Source: a virus
Lineage: Duplodnaviria; Caudoviricetes
Length of the DNA stretch: 64,000 nucleotides
Virus record (IMG/VR): IMGVR_UViG_3300037400_002350
Location: 1 to 64,000 of that record
Direction: 5' to 3' (one strand)
In this document: piece after piece, positions 2,792-21,321 of the stretch
Layout: every line of letters starts with the position of its first letter
How positions within the stretch are numbered: position 1 is the stretch's first letter
The notes under the pieces: model-generated
What the model was told of the DNA's origin: nothing
Seen by the model: only the letters and a program-made list of their open reading frames with translations
Databases searched by the model: none
Position numbers and translations under genes: made by a program

Positions 2792-3221
2792 TCAAAACCG
2801 TATAAAAGGCGCTGTTAGAGCAATAATAACGGCCATCACGCAGTTGTTAAATGCAGAACACGTCGATGTAAGCACTCTCAATGACGACGAAGTAGCAAAC
2901 CTTTTAATAAAAGGAACAAATGCTACAAAGAACGCCGAAAAGAAAGAGTTAAATCTGTCTGACATAGAGTGTGCTTGTGAGTATATCCACCATTTATATG
3001 GAGAGGACATTATACGCATGCCTTCTTCTGAAATAGAAGCAGACTTGCTGTACAAAATACTCAACATCGACAATGTGCACACCGCAAAGCTCAAACAAGC
3101 TTGCCAAACAATAGTCGAAAACAAAGCGAAAGCCAATGTATGGTTTGCAAACAAACACGCCAAAACGTTATTGCAAAATGTATATAACGTAATGGCGTTA
3201 ATACAAAGCTGTAGAAGATAA
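2760..3221 (+). CDS. Hypothetical protein
   Basis: 153-aa ORF. Confidence 0.7.
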   Translation: MKAIVILHNGDQNRIKGAVRAIITAITQLLNAEHVDVSTLNDDEVANLLIKGTNATKNAEKKELNLSDIECACEYIHHLYGEDIIRMPSSEIEADLLYKILNIDNVHTAKLKQACQTIVENKAKANVWFANKHAKTLLQNVYNVMALIQSCRR

Positions 3222-3328
3222 TGAAACCAAACCAATTTGAGGACAGAAGAAACAACAAACGTCCTCCATATCACAGAGAGCAGAATCAGAAGTACAAACT
3301 GAAAAATTATGCATCTTACTATGGTTAA
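3221..3328 (+). CDS. Small basic peptide (35 aa, MKPNQFEDRRNNKRPPYHRE...)
   Basis: TAATG coupling with the upstream stop; fills the gap between genes. Confidence 0.45.
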   Translation: MKPNQFEDRRNNKRPPYHREQNQKYKLKNYASYYG

Positions 3329-3563
3329 AGTAACAATATCTGAAGGCCGAAAGGTAATAAATACAGTTATGTATAAAAACTTTCAAGAAGCCAATGCTGC
3401 AGCTTTTGCAATGCAAAGACTATCAGTCCTTGAAACAATCAAAGTCCCTGTGGACAAAGAATGTGTAAAAGAAGGACAATTTACGTTTAAAAAGATAGCT
3501 AACCCGTACTACGGTAAAACTATCGAAGTAGTAGCAAACAAATCAAAATTTAAAAAATCATAA
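3309..3563 (+). CDS. Hypothetical protein (start may be ATG 3321)
   Basis: 84-aa ORF. Confidence 0.65.
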   Translation: MHLTMVKVTISEGRKVINTVMYKNFQEANAAAFAMQRLSVLETIKVPVDKECVKEGQFTFKKIANPYYGKTIEVVANKSKFKKS

Positions 3564-3568
3564 TCAAT

Positions 3569-4168
3569 ATGGCTAAAGACGATAAAAACACACAGGCCGT
3601 TGTCACAACCGAAGACAACATTATGGAGGAAATCCGTAACACTAATCTCGCAGAAATAGATTTAGGCGAGAAAGTCATGGAAGAAATCAAGAAGGAGAAA
3701 GATGAGCGTAAGGCTCGCGAAATCAAGCAGCGCTATTTGCGTGCTGATTACAACGAGAAGCTTGCCAAAGTCGACATGCTTCACGTTAAACGCCTCAACG
3801 ACATCACCCGTTATCAGTTGACCCAATCAGGTCGTCTGCGTCGTCTCCTCATGGGTTTCAAGGTAGACAAACTGGCTATAGAGTACAGCAGTCACCACGA
3901 GGATGACATCCTGAACATGGAATCCTGCGATAAGAAGGCTGGAACTATCACTATCACAACTAAGTCTGGTAAGAAGACTTACAAAGATGGCGATAAAGTT
4001 CCTGCAGCCATCACTGTAGTAGAGTACGACCGTGCTTTGCAGACACTCGCTGACAAGATCCGCAACATGAAGAATGAAGAGGACAAGCAGCACAGCAAAG
4101 ACATCGACGAGCTCGACAACAGCTTCGGTGACTATTATGTAAGCTCTTGGCGTTACTTCCGTTGGTAG
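3569..4168 (+). CDS. Hypothetical coiled-coil protein (TAG stop), directly upstream of the motif-array RNA
   Basis: 199 aa, charged and helical; codon usage (AAG, ATC, CGT) suggests high expression. Confidence 0.8.
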   Translation: MAKDDKNTQAVVTTEDNIMEEIRNTNLAEIDLGEKVMEEIKKEKDERKAREIKQRYLRADYNEKLAKVDMLHVKRLNDITRYQLTQSGRLRRLLMGFKVDKLAIEYSSHHEDDILNMESCDKKAGTITITTKSGKKTYKDGDKVPAAITVVEYDRALQTLADKIRNMKNEEDKQHSKDIDELDNSFGDYYVSSWRYFRW

Positions 4169-4179
4169 ACCAAGGGGCT

Positions 4180-4485
4180 ATCCAAAACAAGAGCCTTTGA
4201 GCCACGTTTTAAAGAAAAGAGAATTGCCGGATTACAGATGAAGAGAGGCTTCGCCTATGCATGACACCGGATTCTTTAAATCACCCGAATTGACGGGTGC
4301 ACCAAGAACCTTTGAGCCACGGTGCGGATACAAAGCCGACTGCACGGGCTATAATATGCAGCGATTGATCAATCAAATGCGATGTGCAGAGTCAACGAGC
4401 CTGCTATTGCACACAATCGTTATCAAGAATTGAGATACAGCTATATTTCGAGCCAAGAGCCAATAATATATCCACTGTATCATTA
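4180..4485 (+). ncRNA. Candidate protein-sponge RNA: four hairpins each presenting GARYC-N2-3-GAGCC in the loop
   Basis: Stems AAAAC/GTTTT (4184-4210), GCACC/GGTGC (4299-4325), TGTGCA/TGCACA (4383-4413) and GATACAG/CTGTATC (4434-4481) each enclose the tandem motif. Confidence 0.6.
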
Positions 4486-4623
4486 ACAACTAAAACTCAG
4501 ATTATCTTTTCAATAATACTCAGAGACAGGGGGAGAACAGCTGCTCTCTCTGTCAAAGAGTATAATTTTAAGGACATGGAGTTTAAGTATTCTTGTCTGA
4601 TCAATAAGAATATTTACAATTGA

Positions 4624-4875
4624 AGTGTGTGTGAGGTAAACTGTTTGGACGAGGGTTCGATTCCCTCCAGGTCCACGTTGGCAATGCCAGCAATTTTTGC
4701 ATAAGCCCCTTCGGGGGCAATTGGGCCTGACATGGTTTTGACAGCAGTGGAAGTAAACACATTAAGCACTTTAATATAAAATTAACTGGCAATATTAATG
4801 TCAATGACTACACCAAGCTAGCAGCTTGATGGTTCTTACTAAGATTTAAGTCACGTGCTAACTACGAAAGTGAGG
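4624..4875 (+). ncRNA. ssrA: Circularly permuted (two-piece) tmRNA; tag (A)GNINVNDYTKLAA*
   Basis: T-arm GAGGG-TTCGATT-CCCTC and 3' acceptor CAGGTCC-A (4651-4675) lie before the 5' acceptor GGGCCTG (4723-4729, G3-U70 pair); D-loop TGGTTTTGAC; tag frame 4788-4829 follows TAACT; outer ends approximate. Confidence 0.88.
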
Positions 4876-4877
4876 AT

Positions 4878-4927
4878 TGGAAGTTGTCTAATTTTGGAGG
4901 CTTGGGGTTCGAATCCCCGACTTCCAA
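4878..4927 (+). ncRNA. tRNA-like mini-element (acceptor stem + T-arm, no canonical D or anticodon arm)
   Basis: TGGAAGT/ACTTCCA 7-bp stem; T-arm TGGGG-TTCGAAT-CCCCG; 18-nt connector. Confidence 0.65.
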
Positions 4928-4940
4928 CAAATTTTAGATT

Positions 4941-5084
4941 ATGAAAGGATTCATTATATTATACAAAATTGAAGACGAAAAAGCAAAAGAGTTTGAAAAA
5001 TCTCTTAATGAAGATTCTTCCGTTATAAATTATATCGAAGATGATTTTGAAAGCGCTTCGTCTATGTTCCGTCATGAACTATAA
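4941..5084 (+). CDS. Small acidic hypothetical protein (47 aa)
   Basis: ATG..TAA ORF filling the gap, below the track length cutoff. Confidence 0.5.
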   Translation: MKGFIILYKIEDEKAKEFEKSLNEDSSVINYIEDDFESASSMFRHEL

Positions 5085-5098
5085 ACACGTAATGTGAT

Positions 5099-5527
5099 AT
5101 GAAAAATAACACTAGTTACAAAGAAATGTTACGTAATCGAATACCAATAGAGCTAGACCTCACCTTAAAATGGTGTAAATGTAAAACTCAATGGGTTAAT
5201 TACGTATATTCTGAGTTTGTTCAAATATTTTCTGATAAGAAAGAAAGAGACAAGACGATTAGATATATTTTAAAAAAGAAAATCATGCCTGATCCATATG
5301 GAACATATAAAGACAAATTTGATTTTCATGGATGTATCAATTGGGACTGGCTCGATAAAAACGACGAAGAGTATTGGAGAACAGTAGAAGAATGGTTCAA
5401 CTGGTTTGACCATTATGTTCCCTTATTGCAGACATCGGATGATATCCTAGTTCTTTTAAACTCAGAAGATATTGAACAAAAAGAAGAATTACAAAAATTT
5501 CTTATTAAAAACATATGCAAAAGTTAA
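5099..5527 (+). CDS. Hypothetical Trp-rich protein
   Basis: 142-aa ORF. Confidence 0.7.
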   Translation: MKNNTSYKEMLRNRIPIELDLTLKWCKCKTQWVNYVYSEFVQIFSDKKERDKTIRYILKKKIMPDPYGTYKDKFDFHGCINWDWLDKNDEEYWRTVEEWFNWFDHYVPLLQTSDDILVLLNSEDIEQKEELQKFLIKNICKS

Positions 5528-6045: not shown

Positions 6046-6142
6046 CTAAGCGTTTCGGTCACGCAAACAGGAGTGACACCTTAATAAACCGAACTTTCAG
6101 TAAAATTCCTTCTGAATTTAAAGAGGTATAATTTGTTTGATT

Positions 6143-6703
6143 ATGCAGAATCCTAGAATCACCCAAGAAGAAATTGGGATAATCAAAAAGGCTCAGGCTG
6201 GTGATATCACCGCCTTTAACCATATATTTAAGAAGTACAAGGGTTTTGTCGATCACGTACTATATCAGTACATAAAAGACAAAGATGAAGCAAAAGACAT
6301 GACCAATATTGTATTTCTGAAAGTATATGAGAAACTCTCGTCATTCAAAACCTATGACTCCTTTGGAGGATGGTTGAGAATTATAGCAAATCGCACTGCA
6401 ATTGATTATTTGCGTAGTTTAAAAGACAAGGAAGTAGATTTAGGCACAATCGATGTTAGGCCAACATTGGATACCTTATTCTGCAATAGGGACGATGATG
6501 TTGTAAATCATATAACCTATAAAGAATTGTTACAGGAGTTCAAAAAACTCCCAGAAACAACTCGCCGAATCTTTGAATTATTCTACGTAGAGAACTTAAC
6601 TGTAGAAGCGATTAGTGAACAGCTGAGTATCCCAACAGGAACTATAAAGTCAACGTTATCACGGACACGAAAGCGAATTAGAAAAACTTTTAAAAACGTG
6701 TAA
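6143..6703 (+). CDS. ECF-type (sigma-70 group 4) RNA polymerase sigma factor
   Basis: AQAGD..AF, region 2 (DMTNIVFLKVY...FGGWLRIIANRTAIDYLR) and region 4 HTH (LTVEAISEQLSIPTGTIKSTLSR). Confidence 0.92.
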   Translation: MQNPRITQEEIGIIKKAQAGDITAFNHIFKKYKGFVDHVLYQYIKDKDEAKDMTNIVFLKVYEKLSSFKTYDSFGGWLRIIANRTAIDYLRSLKDKEVDLGTIDVRPTLDTLFCNRDDDVVNHITYKELLQEFKKLPETTRRIFELFYVENLTVEAISEQLSIPTGTIKSTLSRTRKRIRKTFKNV

Positions 6704-9031: not shown

Positions 9032-9037
9032 CAATGA

Positions 9038-9975
9038 AGAGGTCTCATTAGCCTCAGATTCTGTCAACACTTTATAATTTACTTGACCTGAGAATATGTA
9101 TACTCTCACTGAGAGAAGAAGCACAAATGCGGTGCGCAAAAGGTAGGGTGGAAGACATTAGAGTGTGAAAAGCTCTATTGTATAGGGGAAAGCGTCGCAA
9201 TAAACCCCTTTCTGGTCTGTGAGAACCGTCTGGTGACAGTAGTCAAGAGAAGACGCGTAAATCTCAAGATGAGTAAAACTATTGCCGTATCGGACACACT
9301 GGTTGATTGTGTATAAAACCAGCATAACGTAACACGAGTCGAAACATGCTTGGCCGAGACCAAGAGAAGTCCGCTGTATGCAGATACATATCTAAGGCAC
9401 AGCATCCGAAACAAGCGTGATACACATTACAATGTCCACATCATAGTGTTCTAGGAGGTCCAAACTCCGATATGAAGGTGATAACCGTATTAGACCATAA
9501 GAAACTACTTATGGAATGTATCGTAAATATGTTGCCTATGTAAGTCCAGTCCAGTGCAAATCTGGTGCCTCTCGTTGCCACGCGTAGGGGATCTAGTTGG
9601 TAAAACGGCTGATATAATATGGAATACTGTACAGCTTTGGTCGTTAGAGCAGTATAAATAAGACAAATGACCGGATGGAGGATGCAGCTCCATATGCGAC
9701 GAGAGACCGCGTACAAAGTCTGACGTGAACAGGGAATTCTTTGGACAAGAGGAACCTGATAGATTAAGAAATGCTTAGTCTATATATTAGTGTGTGAGCT
9801 ACTAAAAGCCTATTTCATAATATTTTTTGGTAAACTGTATTGACCAGCACATTCCAGTGTTGTAAATCTCTCAGTTTTCCAGTGCAGCATGAAAATAGTA
9901 TGTAAGATGTATGTTTCAACTATACTCCATTTGCATTAGTCAAATCTGATGATGTTGTTCATATAAGCACTGCAT
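9038..9975 (+). ncRNA. Candidate large structured ncRNA (domain 1)
   Basis: No credible CDS; long-range helix ACTGAGAGA(9108-9116)/TCTCTCAGT(9867-9875); CTCTCGTTGC/GCGACGAGAG; many hairpins with GNRA-like loops; boundaries approximate. Confidence 0.6.
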
Positions 9976-10019
9976 ATAAATATAATGTGAAACAAAACCA
10001 AACAAATCATTAATTTAGA

Positions 10020-10880
10020 ATGTCCCCCGATAGGGCCCCCTTTCGTTGTATGAAAGAACTGAGGTCGGGAAGTTCGAGTGCCAACCGTAACTGTGAAAAA
10101 ATTAGATAGAATAGGTAGTTTAGGGTATGTAGCAGCAACTACATAAAACGGCGAGCCTATAGAATCGTATACATTTAACTGATGGGCAGCTTACCGTAGC
10201 CATTAAACGCAGTGCAAAAGCGTATGCAGGTATATTACTATCCCCTGTCTCGGGATGTGTGATAAGCAAGGTAGGTGGGTGACAAGGAGCGATGTATGGG
10301 TTGAATTCCCCAGTGTTCGTGCACTATAAACAAGGACGGAAGTAAATCCTAGAGTCAGAACAACCGTAGGGTCTATGATGAGTTCTGGAGCTCTGAGACC
10401 GTTCGATAATGAAACGTTGTGTAGTTACGTCGATATGTAGAAAAATACACTGAGCACGGTAGTGTTACTGTTAGGCTCATAAAATAATCAGAAGCGCACC
10501 AGGAGAAATATATCAGAATCAAACACAGGAAAATACAGATACGATATACGTCCACATCCGTGGACTTTCTCCAAAGACATATTGGTTGTATTTTGGAGAT
10601 CTCTCAACTAGTGAACCCTCCGCGAATCCTGAATCATCAGAGCGCTTAGTGGAGGTCTCCGAGATATTTTTTGAGTAAAACAAATAATTGCTCAGTTCTA
10701 GCACTTGAGTGTGCATTTTGGCATTCAAAGCTTTGTCAAACGGCTTGCTTATGGGCACAGATGACCATATCGCTTGGTCCCCGTCATGTTTAATCCTGAC
10801 TGCTATAATTCGCGTATGCGTTGCGACTAGGTGTCAATATGACTATGTATAGTCGAAAGCGTGGCAATGAAGCCAACCAA
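10020..10880 (+). ncRNA. Candidate large structured ncRNA (domain 2)
   Basis: Long-range GAGTGCCAA(10076-84)/TTGGCATTC(~10718-26) and CGTAACTGTG(10086-95)/TGTAGTTACG(10420-29); more than 10 local hairpins; boundaries approximate. Confidence 0.55.
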
Positions 10881-11005
10881 ATAAAGAACAATAGAACGAA
10901 GAGCAAAATATAAAATTTTTTAAAAAGGCAAAGTGTGGGCCAATCACACATATTACAATAATTTTTCGTTGGTCACATCAACGACGATATCAAAAAGGAA
11001 AAATT

Positions 11006-11623
11006 ATGGGAAAAGTATCAAAACCAACAATCGAAAATAACCGCAAAGTCTTTATGCTTGCTGGTGGATTGCTTGGTACAAGTATCTACAAAGTAGAAGC
11101 TCGCTCATGCGATGCAGGTTGGGAAAACAAGAACCTGAAGTTCAAAACCGAAAAGACTGGGGATTTGTTCCTCAACCGCGAAATCAAGCGTTGTGTCATG
11201 AAAGACTTCAACGTAGTGACAGTAGAAGCAGATGAGACGTCTGGTGACGGCTATGTTTCTCCAAACGCTAAGCTCGTTCTCGACGACGAGTCAACAATCA
11301 CGCTGCCTATCGCAGGCGATTTGTCTTCAATCGGTAAGGTTGAGGAAGACGCTATGCTGAAGGCTTTACGTGGCGACAAGAACATTTTCTTCGACAACGC
11401 AAAGAAGACACACGAAGAATGTAAAGCACGCAACGATGCGAACATCCGCTACGTTGAGGCACTTATGGAAGAGCTCAAGGGCATCAAGCAGTCTTTGATC
11501 ACTGCTAATGTCAACAACGAGAAACTCGTGAAGAAGTACGAGGAAGAGCTCGTAAAGAGCGCTGCTCTTGTTCCAGACCCAAACGAGAAGATTCACGTGC
11601 ATGTGGAAATCCCACAGGACTAA
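11006..11623 (+). CDS. Hypothetical protein
   Basis: 205-aa ORF, biased codon usage. Confidence 0.8.
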   Translation: MGKVSKPTIENNRKVFMLAGGLLGTSIYKVEARSCDAGWENKNLKFKTEKTGDLFLNREIKRCVMKDFNVVTVEADETSGDGYVSPNAKLVLDDESTITLPIAGDLSSIGKVEEDAMLKALRGDKNIFFDNAKKTHEECKARNDANIRYVEALMEELKGIKQSLITANVNNEKLVKKYEEELVKSAALVPDPNEKIHVHVEIPQD

Positions 11624-11634
11624 TCTAGGCATTT

Positions 11635-12216
11635 ATGAGTACGCAATTAATCTCTAGCACAGCAAAGTGCTATATTCAAGTGCTACTCTCAGACCCTCGA
11701 ATTGCAGAACGCGTATTTGAGAACCACGAAGACAAGGAAAAGTACAAGATTTGTACTGTCAATGACACTGGTACAGTTATCATGGGCAAGACACGTTTTC
11801 GCTGGTGGAACAATCTGATTAAATGTCAAGATAAGATACAGTTTATCGACTTCGCTCTTCGGGTATGGAGCGCTTTAGTAGATCTTTCTAAGGGCCTCAA
11901 CAAAGAGGCCGTTTTGAAAGGTCTGTCCCAGGAGATTATCGAACAGTCTGTTCGTGATCGCAAATATGAAGATGTCGTAAATCGTTTGTTCGATTGTTGG
12001 CGCTTCGTTGCACAGGATAGTTCTGGTTTCCAGAAACCTGCGGTTATCAAAGATATTCCACAGGAGCATCACGTGCATGTAGCGCAACCAGTTGGACACA
12101 ACATAATATTACACATCAACGGTAACGAAAAAATTATACCTATCGTAGATAGTGTTGGTGACCCAATACATCTCGGGCTTAAGGTCGGCTTCACAGGAGT
12201 AGACCAAATTTGGTAG
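11635..12216 (+). CDS. Hypothetical protein (TAG stop)
   Basis: 193-aa ORF; shares an HVHV motif with the C-terminus of the upstream protein. Confidence 0.8.
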   Translation: MSTQLISSTAKCYIQVLLSDPRIAERVFENHEDKEKYKICTVNDTGTVIMGKTRFRWWNNLIKCQDKIQFIDFALRVWSALVDLSKGLNKEAVLKGLSQEIIEQSVRDRKYEDVVNRLFDCWRFVAQDSSGFQKPAVIKDIPQEHHVHVAQPVGHNIILHINGNEKIIPIVDSVGDPIHLGLKVGFTGVDQIW

Positions 12217-14686: not shown

Positions 14687-14697
14687 ATTTTTATTTA

Positions 14698-14710
14698 GAG
14701 TCTATGAACC
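14698..14710 (+). promoter_or_regulatory. GAGTC-TAT-GAACC motif abutting the polymerase ATG
   Basis: Same tandem motif as the loops at 4.2-4.5 kb and upstream of 18598 and 20353. Confidence 0.55.
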
Positions 14711-16588
14711 ATGAAAATAAAAAATACACCTGTTGTAGTTTACGACATTGAGGTGTTTCCAAATGTGTTTCATTGCACCTGTAAAGATACAGAAACAAAT
14801 GAGTTCAAATACTTTGAAATATCGGTTCGCAAGAATCAACTCAAAGAGTTAAAAGATTACTTCTTAGACAAGACTCATATGTTTTGTGGTTATAACAACC
14901 ATCACTATGATGATGTTGTTATAAACTACATTATAGATTACTATGACGTAATGCTTAACAAACATTATCTAGACATATGTAAATCTATATATAATCTTTC
15001 AGATGCTATTATAAAAGCACAAGAAGGTGATACCAAAAAGTTTAATAGATGGAAGTACGCCAACTTCTTTTATTCTATGGACATTCTCACCATGATGTTT
15101 AGTTCTAAACTAAGGGTTGGATTGAAAGCAATGCAAATGACCATGCGTTATCACAACGTACAAGAATACGACGGTGATTTTACACAATGGTTACCCAAAG
15201 AGGAAATAGACAAAATGAAAGAATATAACATAAACGACGTAGAATCTACTGCCGTTTTGTTAGAAAAGAAAAAGAAAGATATTGACGTTCGATTATTTAT
15301 TGAACAAGAATATGGTATTGATGCGCTTTCAATGGATAGTGTGAAGTTCGGAACAGAAATTCTTGCAAAAGAATACTGTAAACGAACAGGAATAAGCAAA
15401 TGGGAATTAAAACAAATGCGTTCCCCACAAGACACTATTGCATTGAAAGATGTTATCTTACCAATAATAGACTATAAAGACCCGATATTAAAAGCCGTTC
15501 TTAAAGATATGAAGAGCAGTGTAGTATCTTCGTTAGAACGCAAAGGCTATGAGAAGAAGTTTGTTCTCTCAGATGTTTGTTATTCTGTTGGAGTTGGGGG
15601 AATCCATTCCATAAATAGTCCAGAAATATACAAACCCAAACCCGACGAATACATTGGTCATAGCGATGTGACTTCAATGTACCCATCTTTCATTGTGCAG
15701 TATAAGTGGGGCCCACAGCATCTCGGTTTGGTATTTTGGGAAATATACAAAGATATTTATTATCAACGTATAGAAGCCAAACATAGTGGACAGAAAAATA
15801 AGAATCAGGCTCTTAAATTGACTCTTAATTCTGTTTCAGGAAAAATGCAAGAAGAAACAAGTTGGATGTACGATCCGTTAAATGTCTTTAAAATACGCAT
15901 CAATGGACAATTGGTGCTATTAATGTTAGTGGATCGTTTATTAGAGTTAGGTTGTAAGATTGTACAAGTTAACACTGATGGTGTCTATTATATTGCTAAA
16001 AAGACCGTTCGTGATAGAGTTCAGGAGGCTATTCACGATATCGAGCAATTAACCAAACTTGAATTTGAAAGCGATAACTATGAAGCGTTTTATCAGTACG
16101 CAGTCAACGATTATTTCGGGGTTGTTGAGGGTTATTCACAATCGCATGACCCAGAACTGATACAAAAGGTAGGTTCGTTCCGTGATGAAACAGAAGCGGG
16201 AAAAGGATTAACACCAGTCATAATCCCAAAAGCCGTAATGAACTACTTTTTAACAAATGAACCTGTTGAAAACTACATAAAAAGACAAACAAACATTTAT
16301 GATTTTCTTATGGGCCAACGTGTCGATAAGAAATTCAAAGTACGACATGGCGATAAGTATGTACAACATCTAAATCGCTATTACGCAAGCACTAACGATT
16401 ACTATCTATTTAAAGTAGATGATACCGGAAAAGAAACAAACATGCTAACAAAATCCGGAGTAACTATTTTGAATAAAGTAACCGACCCTACAACTGAAAA
16501 CAAACGTGTCAACTATCAATATTACATAGGCGAAGCTTATGCGATGATTGAAAAATTGAGAAACGTCCAGTTGTCATTATTTCAATAA
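14711..16588 (+). CDS. DNA polymerase, family B (crAss-type), with a 3'-5' exonuclease domain
   Basis: ExoI YDIE, ExoII GYNNHHYD, ExoIII YNINDV; motif A DVTSMYP, motif B KLTLNSVSG, motif C NTDG. Confidence 0.93.
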   Translation: MKIKNTPVVVYDIEVFPNVFHCTCKDTETNEFKYFEISVRKNQLKELKDYFLDKTHMFCGYNNHHYDDVVINYIIDYYDVMLNKHYLDICKSIYNLSDAIIKAQEGDTKKFNRWKYANFFYSMDILTMMFSSKLRVGLKAMQMTMRYHNVQEYDGDFTQWLPKEEIDKMKEYNINDVESTAVLLEKKKKDIDVRLFIEQEYGIDALSMDSVKFGTEILAKEYCKRTGISKWELKQMRSPQDTIALKDVILPIIDYKDPILKAVLKDMKSSVVSSLERKGYEKKFVLSDVCYSVGVGGIHSINSPEIYKPKPDEYIGHSDVTSMYPSFIVQYKWGPQHLGLVFWEIYKDIYYQRIEAKHSGQKNKNQALKLTLNSVSGKMQEETSWMYDPLNVFKIRINGQLVLLMLVDRLLELGCKIVQVNTDGVYYIAKKTVRDRVQEAIHDIEQLTKLEFESDNYEAFYQYAVNDYFGVVEGYSQSHDPELIQKVGSFRDETEAGKGLTPVIIPKAVMNYFLTNEPVENYIKRQTNIYDFLMGQRVDKKFKVRHGDKYVQHLNRYYASTNDYYLFKVDDTGKETNMLTKSGVTILNKVTDPTTENKRVNYQYYIGEAYAMIEKLRNVQLSLFQ

Positions 16589-16615
16589 CACTTGTTAACC
16601 TAAGAGTATAAGAGT

Positions 16616-17179
16616 ATGATCATTGAAGTAAATACCAAGCTCATGGATTTACCAGAGCAAATAAATTCAAATCAACTGTTATTCTTAAGTATGGTATTGG
16701 ATAAGAATCAAAAATCTAATCAACACGTCCGCAAAATTGTCAGCCTAATAAGCGACGACGAGATATCATACTTAACCGATCAGGGACTTATAACCTCGAT
16801 GGAGAGAGGGAATTCAATTACATATCAACCTACAGAGAAATTGCTCAATTTCATTAAACCTGAGAAAGAGTATTTTGATTTATTTTACGATATGTACCCA
16901 AGCTATGTAATCAGACCTGATGGCACTAAAGCATATTTGCGTACCAACGTAAATAAGTGCCGTCATTTGTTTAACACTTACATTGGTAATAGTGATGCTA
17001 TGGCAGAACACCTCATTAGCTGTCTTGATAAAGAGATACAGCGAAAGATGAACCAAGGTAAGATCGGTTACATGAAGACTATGTGGAGATGGTTAGTAGA
17101 CCATCAATGGGAAGAAACTGAGGCAGAGATGCAAGAATCCACTATAAACGCTAACAACTATGGAACAGAGTTACTATAA
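16616..17179 (+). CDS. Putative replication protein (wHTH, initiator- or helicase-loader-like)
   Basis: Lies between polymerase and helicase; FDLFYDMYP and ...TMWRWL...WE patterns resemble phage replication proteins. Confidence 0.55.
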   Translation: MIIEVNTKLMDLPEQINSNQLLFLSMVLDKNQKSNQHVRKIVSLISDDEISYLTDQGLITSMERGNSITYQPTEKLLNFIKPEKEYFDLFYDMYPSYVIRPDGTKAYLRTNVNKCRHLFNTYIGNSDAMAEHLISCLDKEIQRKMNQGKIGYMKTMWRWLVDHQWEETEAEMQESTINANNYGTELL

Positions 17180-18584: not shown

Positions 18585-18597
18585 GAGTCATAGAACC
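18585..18597 (+). promoter_or_regulatory. GAGTC-ATA-GAACC motif abutting the AAA ATPase ATG
   Basis: Tandem motif with the same spacing as the polymerase site. Confidence 0.55.
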
Positions 18598-19341: not shown

Positions 19342-19367
19342 GAACTATAAGTCAGAAAGGAAAAATT

Positions 19368-19973
19368 ATGTATAGTACAAAAACAGCAACAGTAAACGAT
19401 CAGGAGTTTGTAAGCTCCTATATGCCAGTTGGTATCAACGAAAACGTAACACTGAAAGAAGTAAACGTTAACAAGTCACCTCAAGGACGTGATTTCCTTG
19501 AGATAGTGTTTGAAAACGACAAAGGACAAACCGCAACGGTAACAGAGTGGAAGAATGAGAAGAACATGTGGATTAAAACTGATGAAGATTTGCAACATCG
19601 CGATGATCAACAGTTTGGTCGCATACTTCAAATTATCGATGCTGTAAATGGCAGTCACCCTGATTTCGAAGGTACATCTTTTGCAGAGATGATAAACTGG
19701 GTAAAATCAGTTTTGATTCCAAACAAAGTAGCGTTGCGTCTTAAAGTTGTTTATGACAAGCGTGGTTATACAAAAGTAAGTACGCTTGGTATTTTCATTG
19801 AACCAATGGGTGTCACTGAATCTAAAGTTAAGCTTTGGAAGAACGATCTTCTTGAGCGACCAGTTGTAGCTGATAACGAAGCTGCAGATCCGCTTACTTC
19901 TACACCAGTAGAAAGTACTCCGGTAACAGATTTTAGTGACGTAAATCCAGGTGCTGACGACCTACCATTTTGA
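19368..19973 (+). CDS. Putative single-stranded DNA-binding protein
   Basis: Beta-rich N-terminus; acidic tail ending DDLPF. Confidence 0.7.
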   Translation: MYSTKTATVNDQEFVSSYMPVGINENVTLKEVNVNKSPQGRDFLEIVFENDKGQTATVTEWKNEKNMWIKTDEDLQHRDDQQFGRILQIIDAVNGSHPDFEGTSFAEMINWVKSVLIPNKVALRLKVVYDKRGYTKVSTLGIFIEPMGVTESKVKLWKNDLLERPVVADNEAADPLTSTPVESTPVTDFSDVNPGADDLPF

Positions 19974-20340: not shown

Positions 20341-20352
20341 GAGCTTAGAGCC
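20341..20352 (+). promoter_or_regulatory. GAGCT-TA-GAGCC motif abutting the primase ATG
   Basis: Variant of the tandem motif. Confidence 0.5.
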
Positions 20353-21321
20353 ATGTATAGTACGAAAACTGCAATCACAATGAGTCTTAGAGACTTGTTG
20401 GAAAAAGTTAGTGACTATGACATTTATTCTTATTGTTTGGGAAATTTCAAAGTTGGCAAATTGATGAATAGTCCATTAAGGACTACTGACCAAATTCCAT
20501 CATTCGCTATTTTCAAAGGTTCCAATGGTGGTCTTTTCTTTAAAGACCACGGAACCGGAGAAGGCGGAAATGCTATAAAGTTCCTAAAATTGTATAAGAA
20601 CATACAAACCAAAGATGCATTAGAACAAGAGCTGTTACGCATCGTCCGAAAAATGGGTCCGATGGGCGGTAAGGCAATAGCTACAGCCGTAAAAACGGTG
20701 GATTCAGGGCTAACAGATATTGGTATAGTGCGTCAACCATTTACAGAAGTAGACAAGAAATATTGGAAACAATTCCACATATCAATCGAAACGTTGAAGA
20801 AATTCAATGTGTTTAGCATTAAATACTTTCTTTGTAATAGAGTCGTCAGAGGAACCTACAAGGAAGATAGTCCTATGTATGCATATAAGGTGTATGAGAA
20901 ATTTAAGATTTATCGTCCACTCGCTTCCAAGTATACTAAATGGCGTACCAATCTGACAAATCGGGACGTACAGGGGCTAGCCGAACTCCCACAGGAAGGT
21001 GGAAATCTCTTAATCATAACAAAATCTTTGAAAGACGTTATGTGTCTTTATGAGATGGGGTTTAGTGCTATAGCTGCTTCAAGTGAAACTACATTTATCC
21101 CTGAGGATATTATAGAAGACCTAAAAAGTAGATGGAAAAAGATTGTTATAATATACGATCGAGATAAAACTGGTGTAAAAACCGCTCGTGAATATAGTAA
21201 ACAATTTGGGTTTGATGCCGTATTCGTTAACAAGCGTTACCACGCAAAAGACATATCCGATGCTGTTAAAGCAAACGGGTTTACAGAAATAAAAAATTGG
21301 TTAATAACAGAACTAAAATAA
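20353..21321 (+). CDS. DNA primase (DnaG/TOPRIM type); true start ATG 20353
   Basis: SPLR...PSF, FKDHG.G..GN, IITKSLKDVM, YDRDKTG and KDISD motifs; the track's 5' extension runs through the tRNA-like element. Confidence 0.9.
   Translation: MYSTKTAITMSLRDLLEKVSDYDIYSYCLGNFKVGKLMNSPLRTTDQIPSFAIFKGSNGGLFFKDHGTGEGGNAIKFLKLYKNIQTKDALEQELLRIVRKMGPMGGKAIATAVKTVDSGLTDIGIVRQPFTEVDKKYWKQFHISIETLKKFNVFSIKYFLCNRVVRGTYKEDSPMYAYKVYEKFKIYRPLASKYTKWRTNLTNRDVQGLAELPQEGGNLLIITKSLKDVMCLYEMGFSAIAASSETTFIPEDIIEDLKSRWKKIVIIYDRDKTGVKTAREYSKQFGFDAVFVNKRYHAKDISDAVKANGFTEIKNWLITELK

Follow-up and report, generated by a model that had tools for sequence, protein, structure and literature searches.

The question raised by positions 4180-4485 of this viral DNA is why one short tandem motif recurs in the loops of four intergenic hairpins and again on the start codons of replication genes, and what might read it there. 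The window, which is the whole stretch of 64,000 nucleotides analysed, is the left 64 kb of the 100,968-bp genome of a crAss-like phage with direct terminal repeats. The phage was found in ruminant gut samples and its nearest named relatives are members of the subfamily Oafivirinae of the Suoliviridae (cr273_1, cr7_1, cr124_1 and Bohxovirus). The crAss-like phages are among the most abundant viruses of the mammalian gut and, to our knowledge, almost nothing is known of their post-transcriptional gene regulation. Early and replication genes occupy the + strand from 0 to 24.5 kb (Table 1). The 4180-4485 region sits inside an ORF-free gap of 930 nt (4169-5098), the 3′ part of which is filled by a tmRNA.

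A preliminary description had placed one motif copy in each of four hairpin loops, three further copies at position -1 of the ATG codons of the DNA polymerase, a Sak4-like ATPase and the primase, and a degenerate copy at 16604-16615. On rechecking of the coordinates, the four loop motifs and the three start-codon copies were recovered exactly (Table 1). The degenerate copy is also present and its position is kept in relatives. The consensus of the motif is two direct pentamers, A-GARYC-N2-3-GARYC-A, with an A directly 3′ of the motif in approximately three quarters of copies. Copies of the cluster are nearer to this consensus than those of the mRNAs. The stems were said to be of unrelated sequence, and they differ completely both between copies and between genomes. 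A scan of all 100,968 bp for the pattern first proposed gave seven forward matches and none in reverse, against one and two matches for the reversed-pattern control on the same genome. Enrichment was assessed in 12 non-redundant Crassvirales / Suoliviridae / Oafivirinae genomes, with ORFs of at least 100 aa. The strict motif matched 77 times on the gene strand and twice on the other strand in this set, and 12 strict copies abut a first ATG, where 0.23 would be expected. As had been proposed, the motif is presented in loops and is common to the intergenic cluster and the replication-gene starts. It is also strand-specific and conserved across the subfamily.

Table 1. Motif copies, hairpins and genes of the early region, in window coordinates.
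Feature	Position	Strand	Description
199-aa gene	3569..4168	+	Stop ~16 nt before hairpin 1; syntenic across the subfamily
Motif hairpin 1	4184..4210	+	Stem AAAAC/GTTTT, loop AA-GAGCCTTTGAGCC-AC; motif GAGCC-TTT-GAGCC at 4191-4203
Motif-free conserved hairpin	4282..4299	+	Stem CACCC/GGGTG, loop GAATTGAC (GAATTAAC in relatives)
Motif hairpin 2	4299..4325	+	Stem GCACC/GGTGC, loop AA-GAACCTTTGAGCC-AC; motif GAACC-TTT-GAGCC at 4306-4318
Motif-free conserved hairpin	4335..4349	+	GCCG-ACTGCA-CGGGC
Motif hairpin 3	4378..4413	+	Motif GAGTCAACGAGCC (GAGTC-AAC-GAGCC) at 4389-4401; MFE -13.1 kcal/mol
Motif hairpin 4	4434..4481	+	Motif GAGCCAAGAGCC (GAGCC-AA-GAGCC) at 4450-4461; z = -3.0
Circularly permuted (two-piece) tmRNA	4586..4920	+	ARAGORN; tag GNINVNDYTKLAA*; immediately 3′ of the cluster
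Sigma-factor-like gene	6143-6703	+	ATG 6143; ECF-like span 6137-6703; phrog_1740
Motif copy GAATCCTAGAATC	6148..6160	+	2 nt after the ATG of the sigma-factor-like gene (6143)
Motif copy GAGTCTATGAACC (GAGTC-TAT-GAACC)	14698..14710	+	Abuts the DNA polymerase ATG; enclosed by TTTTATTT/AAATAAAA
DNA polymerase	ATG 14711	+	
Degenerate motif copy AAGAGTATAAGAGT	16602..16615	+	Abuts the ATG of the 187-aa gene; GTATATAAG in Burzaovirus
187-aa gene	ATG 16616	+	Precedes the DnaB-like helicase
DnaB-like helicase	17160	+	
Motif copy GAGTCATAGAACC (GAGTC-ATA-GAACC)	18585..18597	+	Abuts the Sak4-like ATPase ATG
Sak4-like ATPase	ATG 18598	+	
Motif copy GAACTATAAGTC	19342..19353	+	14 nt upstream of the ATG of the 201-aa gene
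201-aa gene	ATG 19368	+	
Motif copy GAGCTTAGAGCC (GAGCT-TA-GAGCC)	20341..20352	+	Abuts the DnaG-like primase ATG; stem ATACA/TGTAT
DnaG-like primase	ATG 20353	+	

The same motif overlaps translation-initiation regions, including the ATG codons of several replication genes. Some sites have their last nucleotide at -1 to -3 relative to the ATG, others overlap the ATG or start 2 nt past it, and all these positions are covered by a ribosome footprint. The start codon often lies inside the loop or in the 3′ strand of the stem. The start of the DNA polymerase was read in 14 related genomes, and 12 of them carry the motif there. It stands at an offset of 0-2 from the ATG in all ten IMG/VR genomes, with polymerases that are down to ~60% identical. 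Covariation links the polymerase stems to the first codons of the gene (TTTTATTT/AAATAAAA, TATTA/TAATA, GTATA/TATAC and ATTAAC/GTTAAT) and the hairpin therefore spans the start codon. At the Sak4-like ATPase, the stem TAACAT/ATGTTA includes the ATG in its 3′ strand, and most relatives have the motif or a close variant at this start. Most relatives also carry it at the start of the primase. The 187-aa gene has the motif on its own start in every lineage, as a degenerate copy that is conserved. The motif upstream of the 201-aa gene includes an ACTATA complementary to codons 2-3 (TATAGT), and counterparts of this gene in relatives have a copy 10-14 nt upstream. The polymerase, the Sak4-like ATPase and the primase had been named as the regulon. 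All three are borne out and the set is wider, as it also takes in the site after the sigma-factor ATG and the genes at 16616 and 19368. Membership varies by lineage; the DNA polymerase of cr124_1, for instance, lacks a site. Within the replication module, the motif marks nearly all genes that are initiated independently, and most other early genes are without it. The flanks of the start-codon copies give a mean best stem of 4.38 bp, against 3.59 bp when permuted, a value reached in 3 of 2000 permutations.

The motif sites of the polymerase and the primase are found ~8-14 nt after tRNA-like elements, located within the 60 nt that precede 14698 and 20341. Relatives have either a genuine tRNA or a mimic in these places. 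This suggests a tRNA-style punctuation of the early transcripts and, since the sites follow the tRNA-like elements, an operator at these genes would be the 5′-terminal structure of the processed mRNA.

Two minor features of these genes may be recorded. The 201-aa protein (19368-19390) and the primase (20353-20375) share the same first seven residues, MYSTKTA. These starts have nearly the same nucleotides (ATGTATAGTACAAAAAC...) in all relatives, and their TATAGT complements the ACTATA core upstream, which suggests an RNA-level constraint or an alternative pairing. A perfect GAGTCATAGAACC followed by AGTC occurs ~255 nt inside the DNA polymerase ORF of two relatives (G002 and G003) and of Bohxovirus; motif copies within the polymerase ORF are located at 14985-14997 of locus L010 and 14690-14702 of locus L011.

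The cluster itself is a conserved multi-hairpin structured RNA and not a plain operator array. The motif stems are short (4-9 bp) and the hairpins are not thermodynamically significant singly, with z-scores from -3.0 to +0.9, because of loops of ~17 nt. Taken together, the flanks of the cluster copies pair with a mean best stem of 4.09 bp, against 2.84 bp when permuted, and none of 2000 permutations reached this value. Hairpin 4 has an outer stem GATACAG/CTGTATC and an inner stem TATATT/AATATA. Hairpin 2, with its AAGAGCCUUUGAGCCAC loop, is the best-conserved motif copy, and the motif-free hairpin at 4282..4299 stacks directly on it. In relatives, the space between motif hairpins is likewise taken by a hairpin with a GAATTAAC loop and a CCG-N6-CGG hairpin. 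Changes on both sides were seen at all five pairs of the 4282..4299 stem (91% of alignment cells paired) and at all five pairs of the 4335..4349 stem (79% paired). Over the 13-genome alignment, the two motif-free hairpins were 85% paired against 56% in shuffles, and their covariation score of 0.786 (0.256 when shuffled) was reached by none of 500 shuffles. Sliding of the partners lowered the score to 0.07-0.18, and all ten real pairs change both sides. The single-stranded blocks TATAATATG, GATCAAA and TATCAAGAA are also conserved within the cluster. Conserved blocks run unbroken, via a hairpin with a CTGATCA loop, into the T-arm of the tmRNA in every genome, cr124_1 included.

The tmRNA that follows is of the permuted type. 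It has a tRNA-like domain in permuted order together with a tag reading frame, and it is matched by Rfam RF04321 with 72.1 bits at 4625-4829 (gathering score 47). The order of cluster, then permuted tmRNA, was the same in all relatives checked. The adjacency of the tmRNA, the covarying motif-free hairpins and the unbroken conservation together make it more likely that 4180-4485 is the leader or 5′ arm of the phage tmRNA, judged from the comparison of sequences. The earlier proposal of a discrete sponge RNA of ~300 nt is less likely for a region that lies directly 5′ of the tmRNA, has additional covarying hairpins without a motif and shares unbroken conserved blocks with the tmRNA. It may be that the cluster serves the tmRNA only as an element of its architecture. 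Permuted tmRNAs are described as having idiosyncratic protruding 5′ and 3′ regions that are not modelled by RF04321 (PMC11915505). Within 4100-5100, Rfam searches at gathering and permissive thresholds returned the tmRNA and sub-threshold noise only, with no family for the element. A tRNA-like element (acceptor stem and T-arm) at 4878-4927 ends the coding piece of the tmRNA.

Transcription of the cluster region is hinted at by RNA libraries. A 320-nt contig from a rumen RNA library matches 4172-4488. A contig from another study bridges the 3569-4168 gene and the cluster, running from the upstream gene through the cluster and stopping at the CCA end of the acceptor piece. Identical contigs in runs X11 and X12 were counted as one observation. 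This evidence amounts to a hint because assembled contigs give neither RNA ends nor levels and may arise from DNA carry-over. The borders of the cluster with the upstream gene and with the tmRNA were free of promoter-like and terminator-like signals. The 3569-4168 gene is therefore probably co-transcribed with the cluster.

The arrangement is kept well beyond this genome. When the 17-nt loop of hairpins 1 and 2 served as the query, four related viral genomes came up (G001-G004, in which the loop of hairpin 1 recurs), each with several motif copies nearby, and further relatives were gathered by a DNA polymerase search. Loop-presented repeats at the orthologous locus, which had been put forward as a check, were found in all ten IMG/VR genomes, where the copies are spaced ~83-100 nt apart (roughly 100, 83 and 87). 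Across 15 genomes, the cluster has two to five copies in hairpin loops of ~17 nt, and in relatives it is placed 170-470 nt upstream of the permuted tmRNA. Neither cluster nor motif was found in cr115_1, the one genome of the Uncouvirinae that was searched.

Burzaovirus (RefSeq cr7_1 and cr124_1) departs from the common form in a concerted manner. The half-site GTATC replaces GARYC there, both in the cluster and at the mRNA starts. The cluster unit is composed of stem, AA, half-site, TTY, half-site, AC and stem, and it is repeated four times upstream of the tmRNA. The pattern GTATC-N2-4-GTATC occurs seven times on the gene strand of cr124_1, never on the other strand and never in controls; in cr124_1 and cr7_1, the sites by strand number seven against 0-1. 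Of the seven sites in cr124_1, four are in the cluster, one is at the ATG of the Sak4/RecA-like gene, one begins 2 nt after the sigma-factor ATG and one lies ~105 nt upstream of gp68. Position 2 alone distinguishes GUAUC from the common GAAUC, and this change is present in 14 of 14 half-sites. At the sigma-factor start of Burzaovirus (GTATCAGCGTATC), a change of codons N-P to Y-Q yields a perfect GTATC site, and in G000 and G001 the codons AGA-ATC at this start give GAATC-CTA-GAATC. AAGYC and variants with a 2-nt spacer are likewise common to the cluster and the gene starts in G008 and G009. The concerted change of half-sites in cluster and mRNAs argues for one shared, sequence-specific, trans-acting reader, and is what the common binder proposed in the preliminary description would predict. 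The start codon of the sigma factor is TTG in several relatives, and the motif is present at this start in some lineages only.

The reader is most likely a protein, since neither the tmRNA nor the 2-kb non-coding region yielded a complementary RNA partner. No tandem complement occurs on the gene strand, other than at tRNA 5′ ends, and the tmRNA region and 2-kb non-coding gap of cr124_1 contain no GATAC. The 3569-4168 protein, which had been suggested as the binder, is not favoured by its AlphaFold model, a long helical hairpin with a small beta tip (pLDDT 84, pTM 0.73). This model matches no RNA-binding fold and has no PDB match at E <= 0.001. The protein has only five close homologues and no usable Atlas match, and a protein-based search for the locus gave no relatives. 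The preliminary description is thus supported in part, for the motif element and for a probable shared binder, and not for a discrete sponge or for this protein as the binder. Among ~30 early ORFs, Pfam and PHROGs detected neither an RNA-binding domain nor a CsrA domain, and a search for SmpB found nothing. RegA (Pfam PF01818) had no match in the genome, a result that is uninformative as control genomes were likewise without signal. PDB sequence searches with three conserved small proteins were empty, and the comparison of protein identity between Burzaovirus and other lineages singled out no candidate. The candidates for the reader are two very basic early proteins of 279 aa (pI 10.2) and 253 aa (pI 9.7), together with the conserved 187-aa protein.

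The preferred reading, held tentatively and at slightly below an even chance, is that of a translational operator system whose factor is titrated by the high-consensus copies in the leader or 5′ arm of the tmRNA. The RNA operator would consist of two direct pentamers in the ~17-nt loop of a weak hairpin, in the GUAUC form in Burzaovirus. A single trans-acting factor would recognise it by sequence. This factor is most likely an RNA-binding protein, encoded by the phage, that works as a dimer or by means of tandem domains. The predicted operators are on or near the start codons of the DNA polymerase, the 187-aa gene, the Sak4-like ATPase, the 201-aa gene and the primase, and of the sigma factor in some lineages. 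As the ATG is often inside the loop or in the 3′ stem strand, binding of both half-sites would stabilise the weak hairpin and control ribosome access, thereby gating initiation; the simplest form of this would be repression. The same factor would also be bound, in competition with the mRNAs, by the four near-consensus copies in the leader or 5′ arm of the tmRNA, and the abundance of the tmRNA-linked RNA would set the amount that is free for the replication mRNAs. That the cluster copies are nearer to consensus is as expected for decoys. A more specific form is possible, though rather doubtful: the 5′ arm of a two-piece tmRNA would double as a multivalent decoy for a lineage-specific translational regulator of the replication genes, and in one genus this regulator would have been re-tuned, from A to U at position 2 of the half-site, along with all of its sites. 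We infer both the sign of the regulation and the titration, and an activating or ribosome-recruiting role would fit equally well in several respects.

Such a positive role is the first alternative to be weighed. Bacteroidota lack Shine-Dalgarno initiation, and the motif might recruit ribosomes to the short-leader, tRNA-punctuated replication mRNAs in a host without this pairing. The reader would then be a ribosome-associated factor or a ribosomal component, and the tmRNA copies would help the tmRNA to engage ribosomes. The nearly fixed spacing of 0-3 nt to the ATG agrees with this, as does the presence of the motif on almost every non-overlapping gene start of the replication module. The sites follow tRNA-like elements, so that leaders are only ~25 nt, and both the mRNA starts and the tmRNA must meet the ribosome. 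However, the copy of the sigma factor lies after the ATG, the start codon is often paired in the stem and most other early genes have no motif. The switch from A to U at position 2 of the half-site in one genus is also hard to square with a conserved ribosomal reader. This role is considered unlikely.

A determinant of RNA processing or stability is a less probable explanation, with only a small chance of being correct. The motif would be an endoribonuclease mark, or a protective protein-bound hairpin at the 5′ end. In either role it would influence where the pre-tmRNA and the processed replication mRNAs have their ends, and also their half-lives. The sites do stand at the predicted 5′ ends of mRNAs freed by tRNA-like processing, the cluster is within a precursor that needs cleavage into two tmRNA pieces, and the A that so often follows the motif would be in keeping with a mark of this kind. 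The 320-nt contig is a weak hint in the same direction, although contigs cannot define RNA ends. A cut at the sigma-factor site would destroy the reading frame, and it is left unexplained why the motif keeps so closely to the ATG and not to the 3′ end of the tRNA-like element.

Sites acting at the DNA level are improbable. The cluster would be an origin whose repeats serve a replication initiator or regulator as iterons or operators, or offer hairpin sites to a primase or initiator on displaced ssDNA, and the gene-start copies would be autoregulatory operators. The direct repeats are indeed clustered four times at intervals of ~85-100 bp inside the replication region, and GAGTC contains GTC, the kind of trinucleotide that is read by DnaG-type primases, as known from T7 gp4. 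Against this, the copies show a strand bias of 77 to 2 and a significant enclosure in hairpins, neither of which is expected of iterons that work as duplex sites, independently of strand and of flanking hairpins. The strand bias, the covarying flanks, the setting among covarying RNA helices contiguous with an RNA gene, and positions locked to the ATG and not to a promoter, for which there is no room after the tRNA-like elements, together disfavour this explanation. A promoter element was rejected, as sites end at -1 of the ATG or lie after it. The Bacteroidota promoter pair TTTG...TAnnTTTG was absent from the first 25 kb, and nothing convincing was found in 3000-5400. The middle promoters of phi14:2 have been reported as sigma-70-like, with early transcripts that are without a common upstream motif (bioRxiv 10.1101/2020.03.07.982082).

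By analogy, the operator system proposed here would resemble known operator-plus-decoy circuits in kind. In the Csr/Rsm system, CsrB competes for CsrA. The likeness to CsrB and RsmZ is in the presentation of several copies of a short motif in the loops of one structured RNA, in the position of the motif over the initiation regions of target mRNAs, and in sponge copies that are nearer to consensus than target copies. In contrast, the motif here is a tandem GARYC/GUAUC, where that of Csr/Rsm is A(N)GGA, and no protein resembling CsrA is apparent. The array stands directly before a tmRNA, or is fused to it, and is probably not an independent small RNA, and the whole system is phage-encoded.

Factor-gated initiation has parallels in the MS2 and PP7 operators, T4 gp43 and the T4 RegA regulon. 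The RegA regulon is likewise a phage circuit, in which one RNA-binding protein acts on the start-codon regions of several replication mRNAs. RegA sites are unstructured and AU-rich, however, T4 is without a decoy array, and no RegA homologue was detected here by the search whose controls gave no signal either. The autoregulation of T4 gp43 is similar in its hairpin operator. The coat-protein operators of MS2, Q-beta and PP7 share a weak hairpin with the start codon and recognition of a specific loop sequence, presumably by a dimer. They differ in having a single operator per genome with a loop of 4-6 nt, whereas here there are many operators and a clustered array, with loops of ~17 nt that hold two half-sites. 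Lambda N/boxB is not matched, as boxB is a 5-bp stem with a GNRA-like pentaloop near operon starts, and the present sites are ~17-nt loops on start codons.

The tmRNA is comparable to the permuted tmRNAs of Alphaproteobacteria, Betaproteobacteria and Cyanobacteria (RF04321), in which the T-arm and the CCA-side acceptor strand precede the 5′ acceptor strand and the tag frame. It differs from them in a conserved 5′ region of ~450 nt with four loop motifs that recur on mRNA starts, and no tmRNA with such a motif-bearing 5′ region was found described. Literature on crAss-like phages and Crassvirales with tmRNA likewise gave no description of the element. Together with the lack of an Rfam family, this agrees with the initial view that the system is not a described one. 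New features are the motif, its occurrence on a tmRNA of a phage, and a specificity that has switched in one lineage.

The locus offers a conserved RNA element with a clear set of targets, namely the polymerase, the primase, Sak4, helicase-associated genes and sometimes the sigma factor. The GARYC and GUAUC specificity classes are a natural experiment and a direct route to the reader. For the link to a phage tmRNA, no described precedent was found. If the proposed operator system is correct, it would give a handle on translation control in Bacteroidota and show that the variable arms of permuted tmRNAs can take on a new function. In the more specific form, an RNA known only for ribosome rescue would also time the expression of replication genes.

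Some further observations concern the remainder of the window. From 24500 to 64000, late genes on the minus strand are split into many short ORFs under genetic code 11, as is expected from stop-codon reassignment. The relative G002 has a tRNA with anticodon TTA beside its early region (L010 2672-2745). Between + strand genes, 9032-11005 is an ORF-free, GC-richer stretch of ~2 kb that has no Rfam match and includes the conserved block CCCTCCGCGAATCCTGAATCATCAGAG. Its position is kept in G002 (L010 ~9510-11700) and in cr124_1 (L045 16165-18326), and it is probably a large structured non-coding RNA. At 10960-11005, a conserved hairpin (ATCGTTGG...CAACGAT) followed by ATCAAAAAGGA precedes a 205-aa gene in all relatives. 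In Burzaovirus, a GTATC motif is located ~105 nt upstream of the counterpart of this gene.
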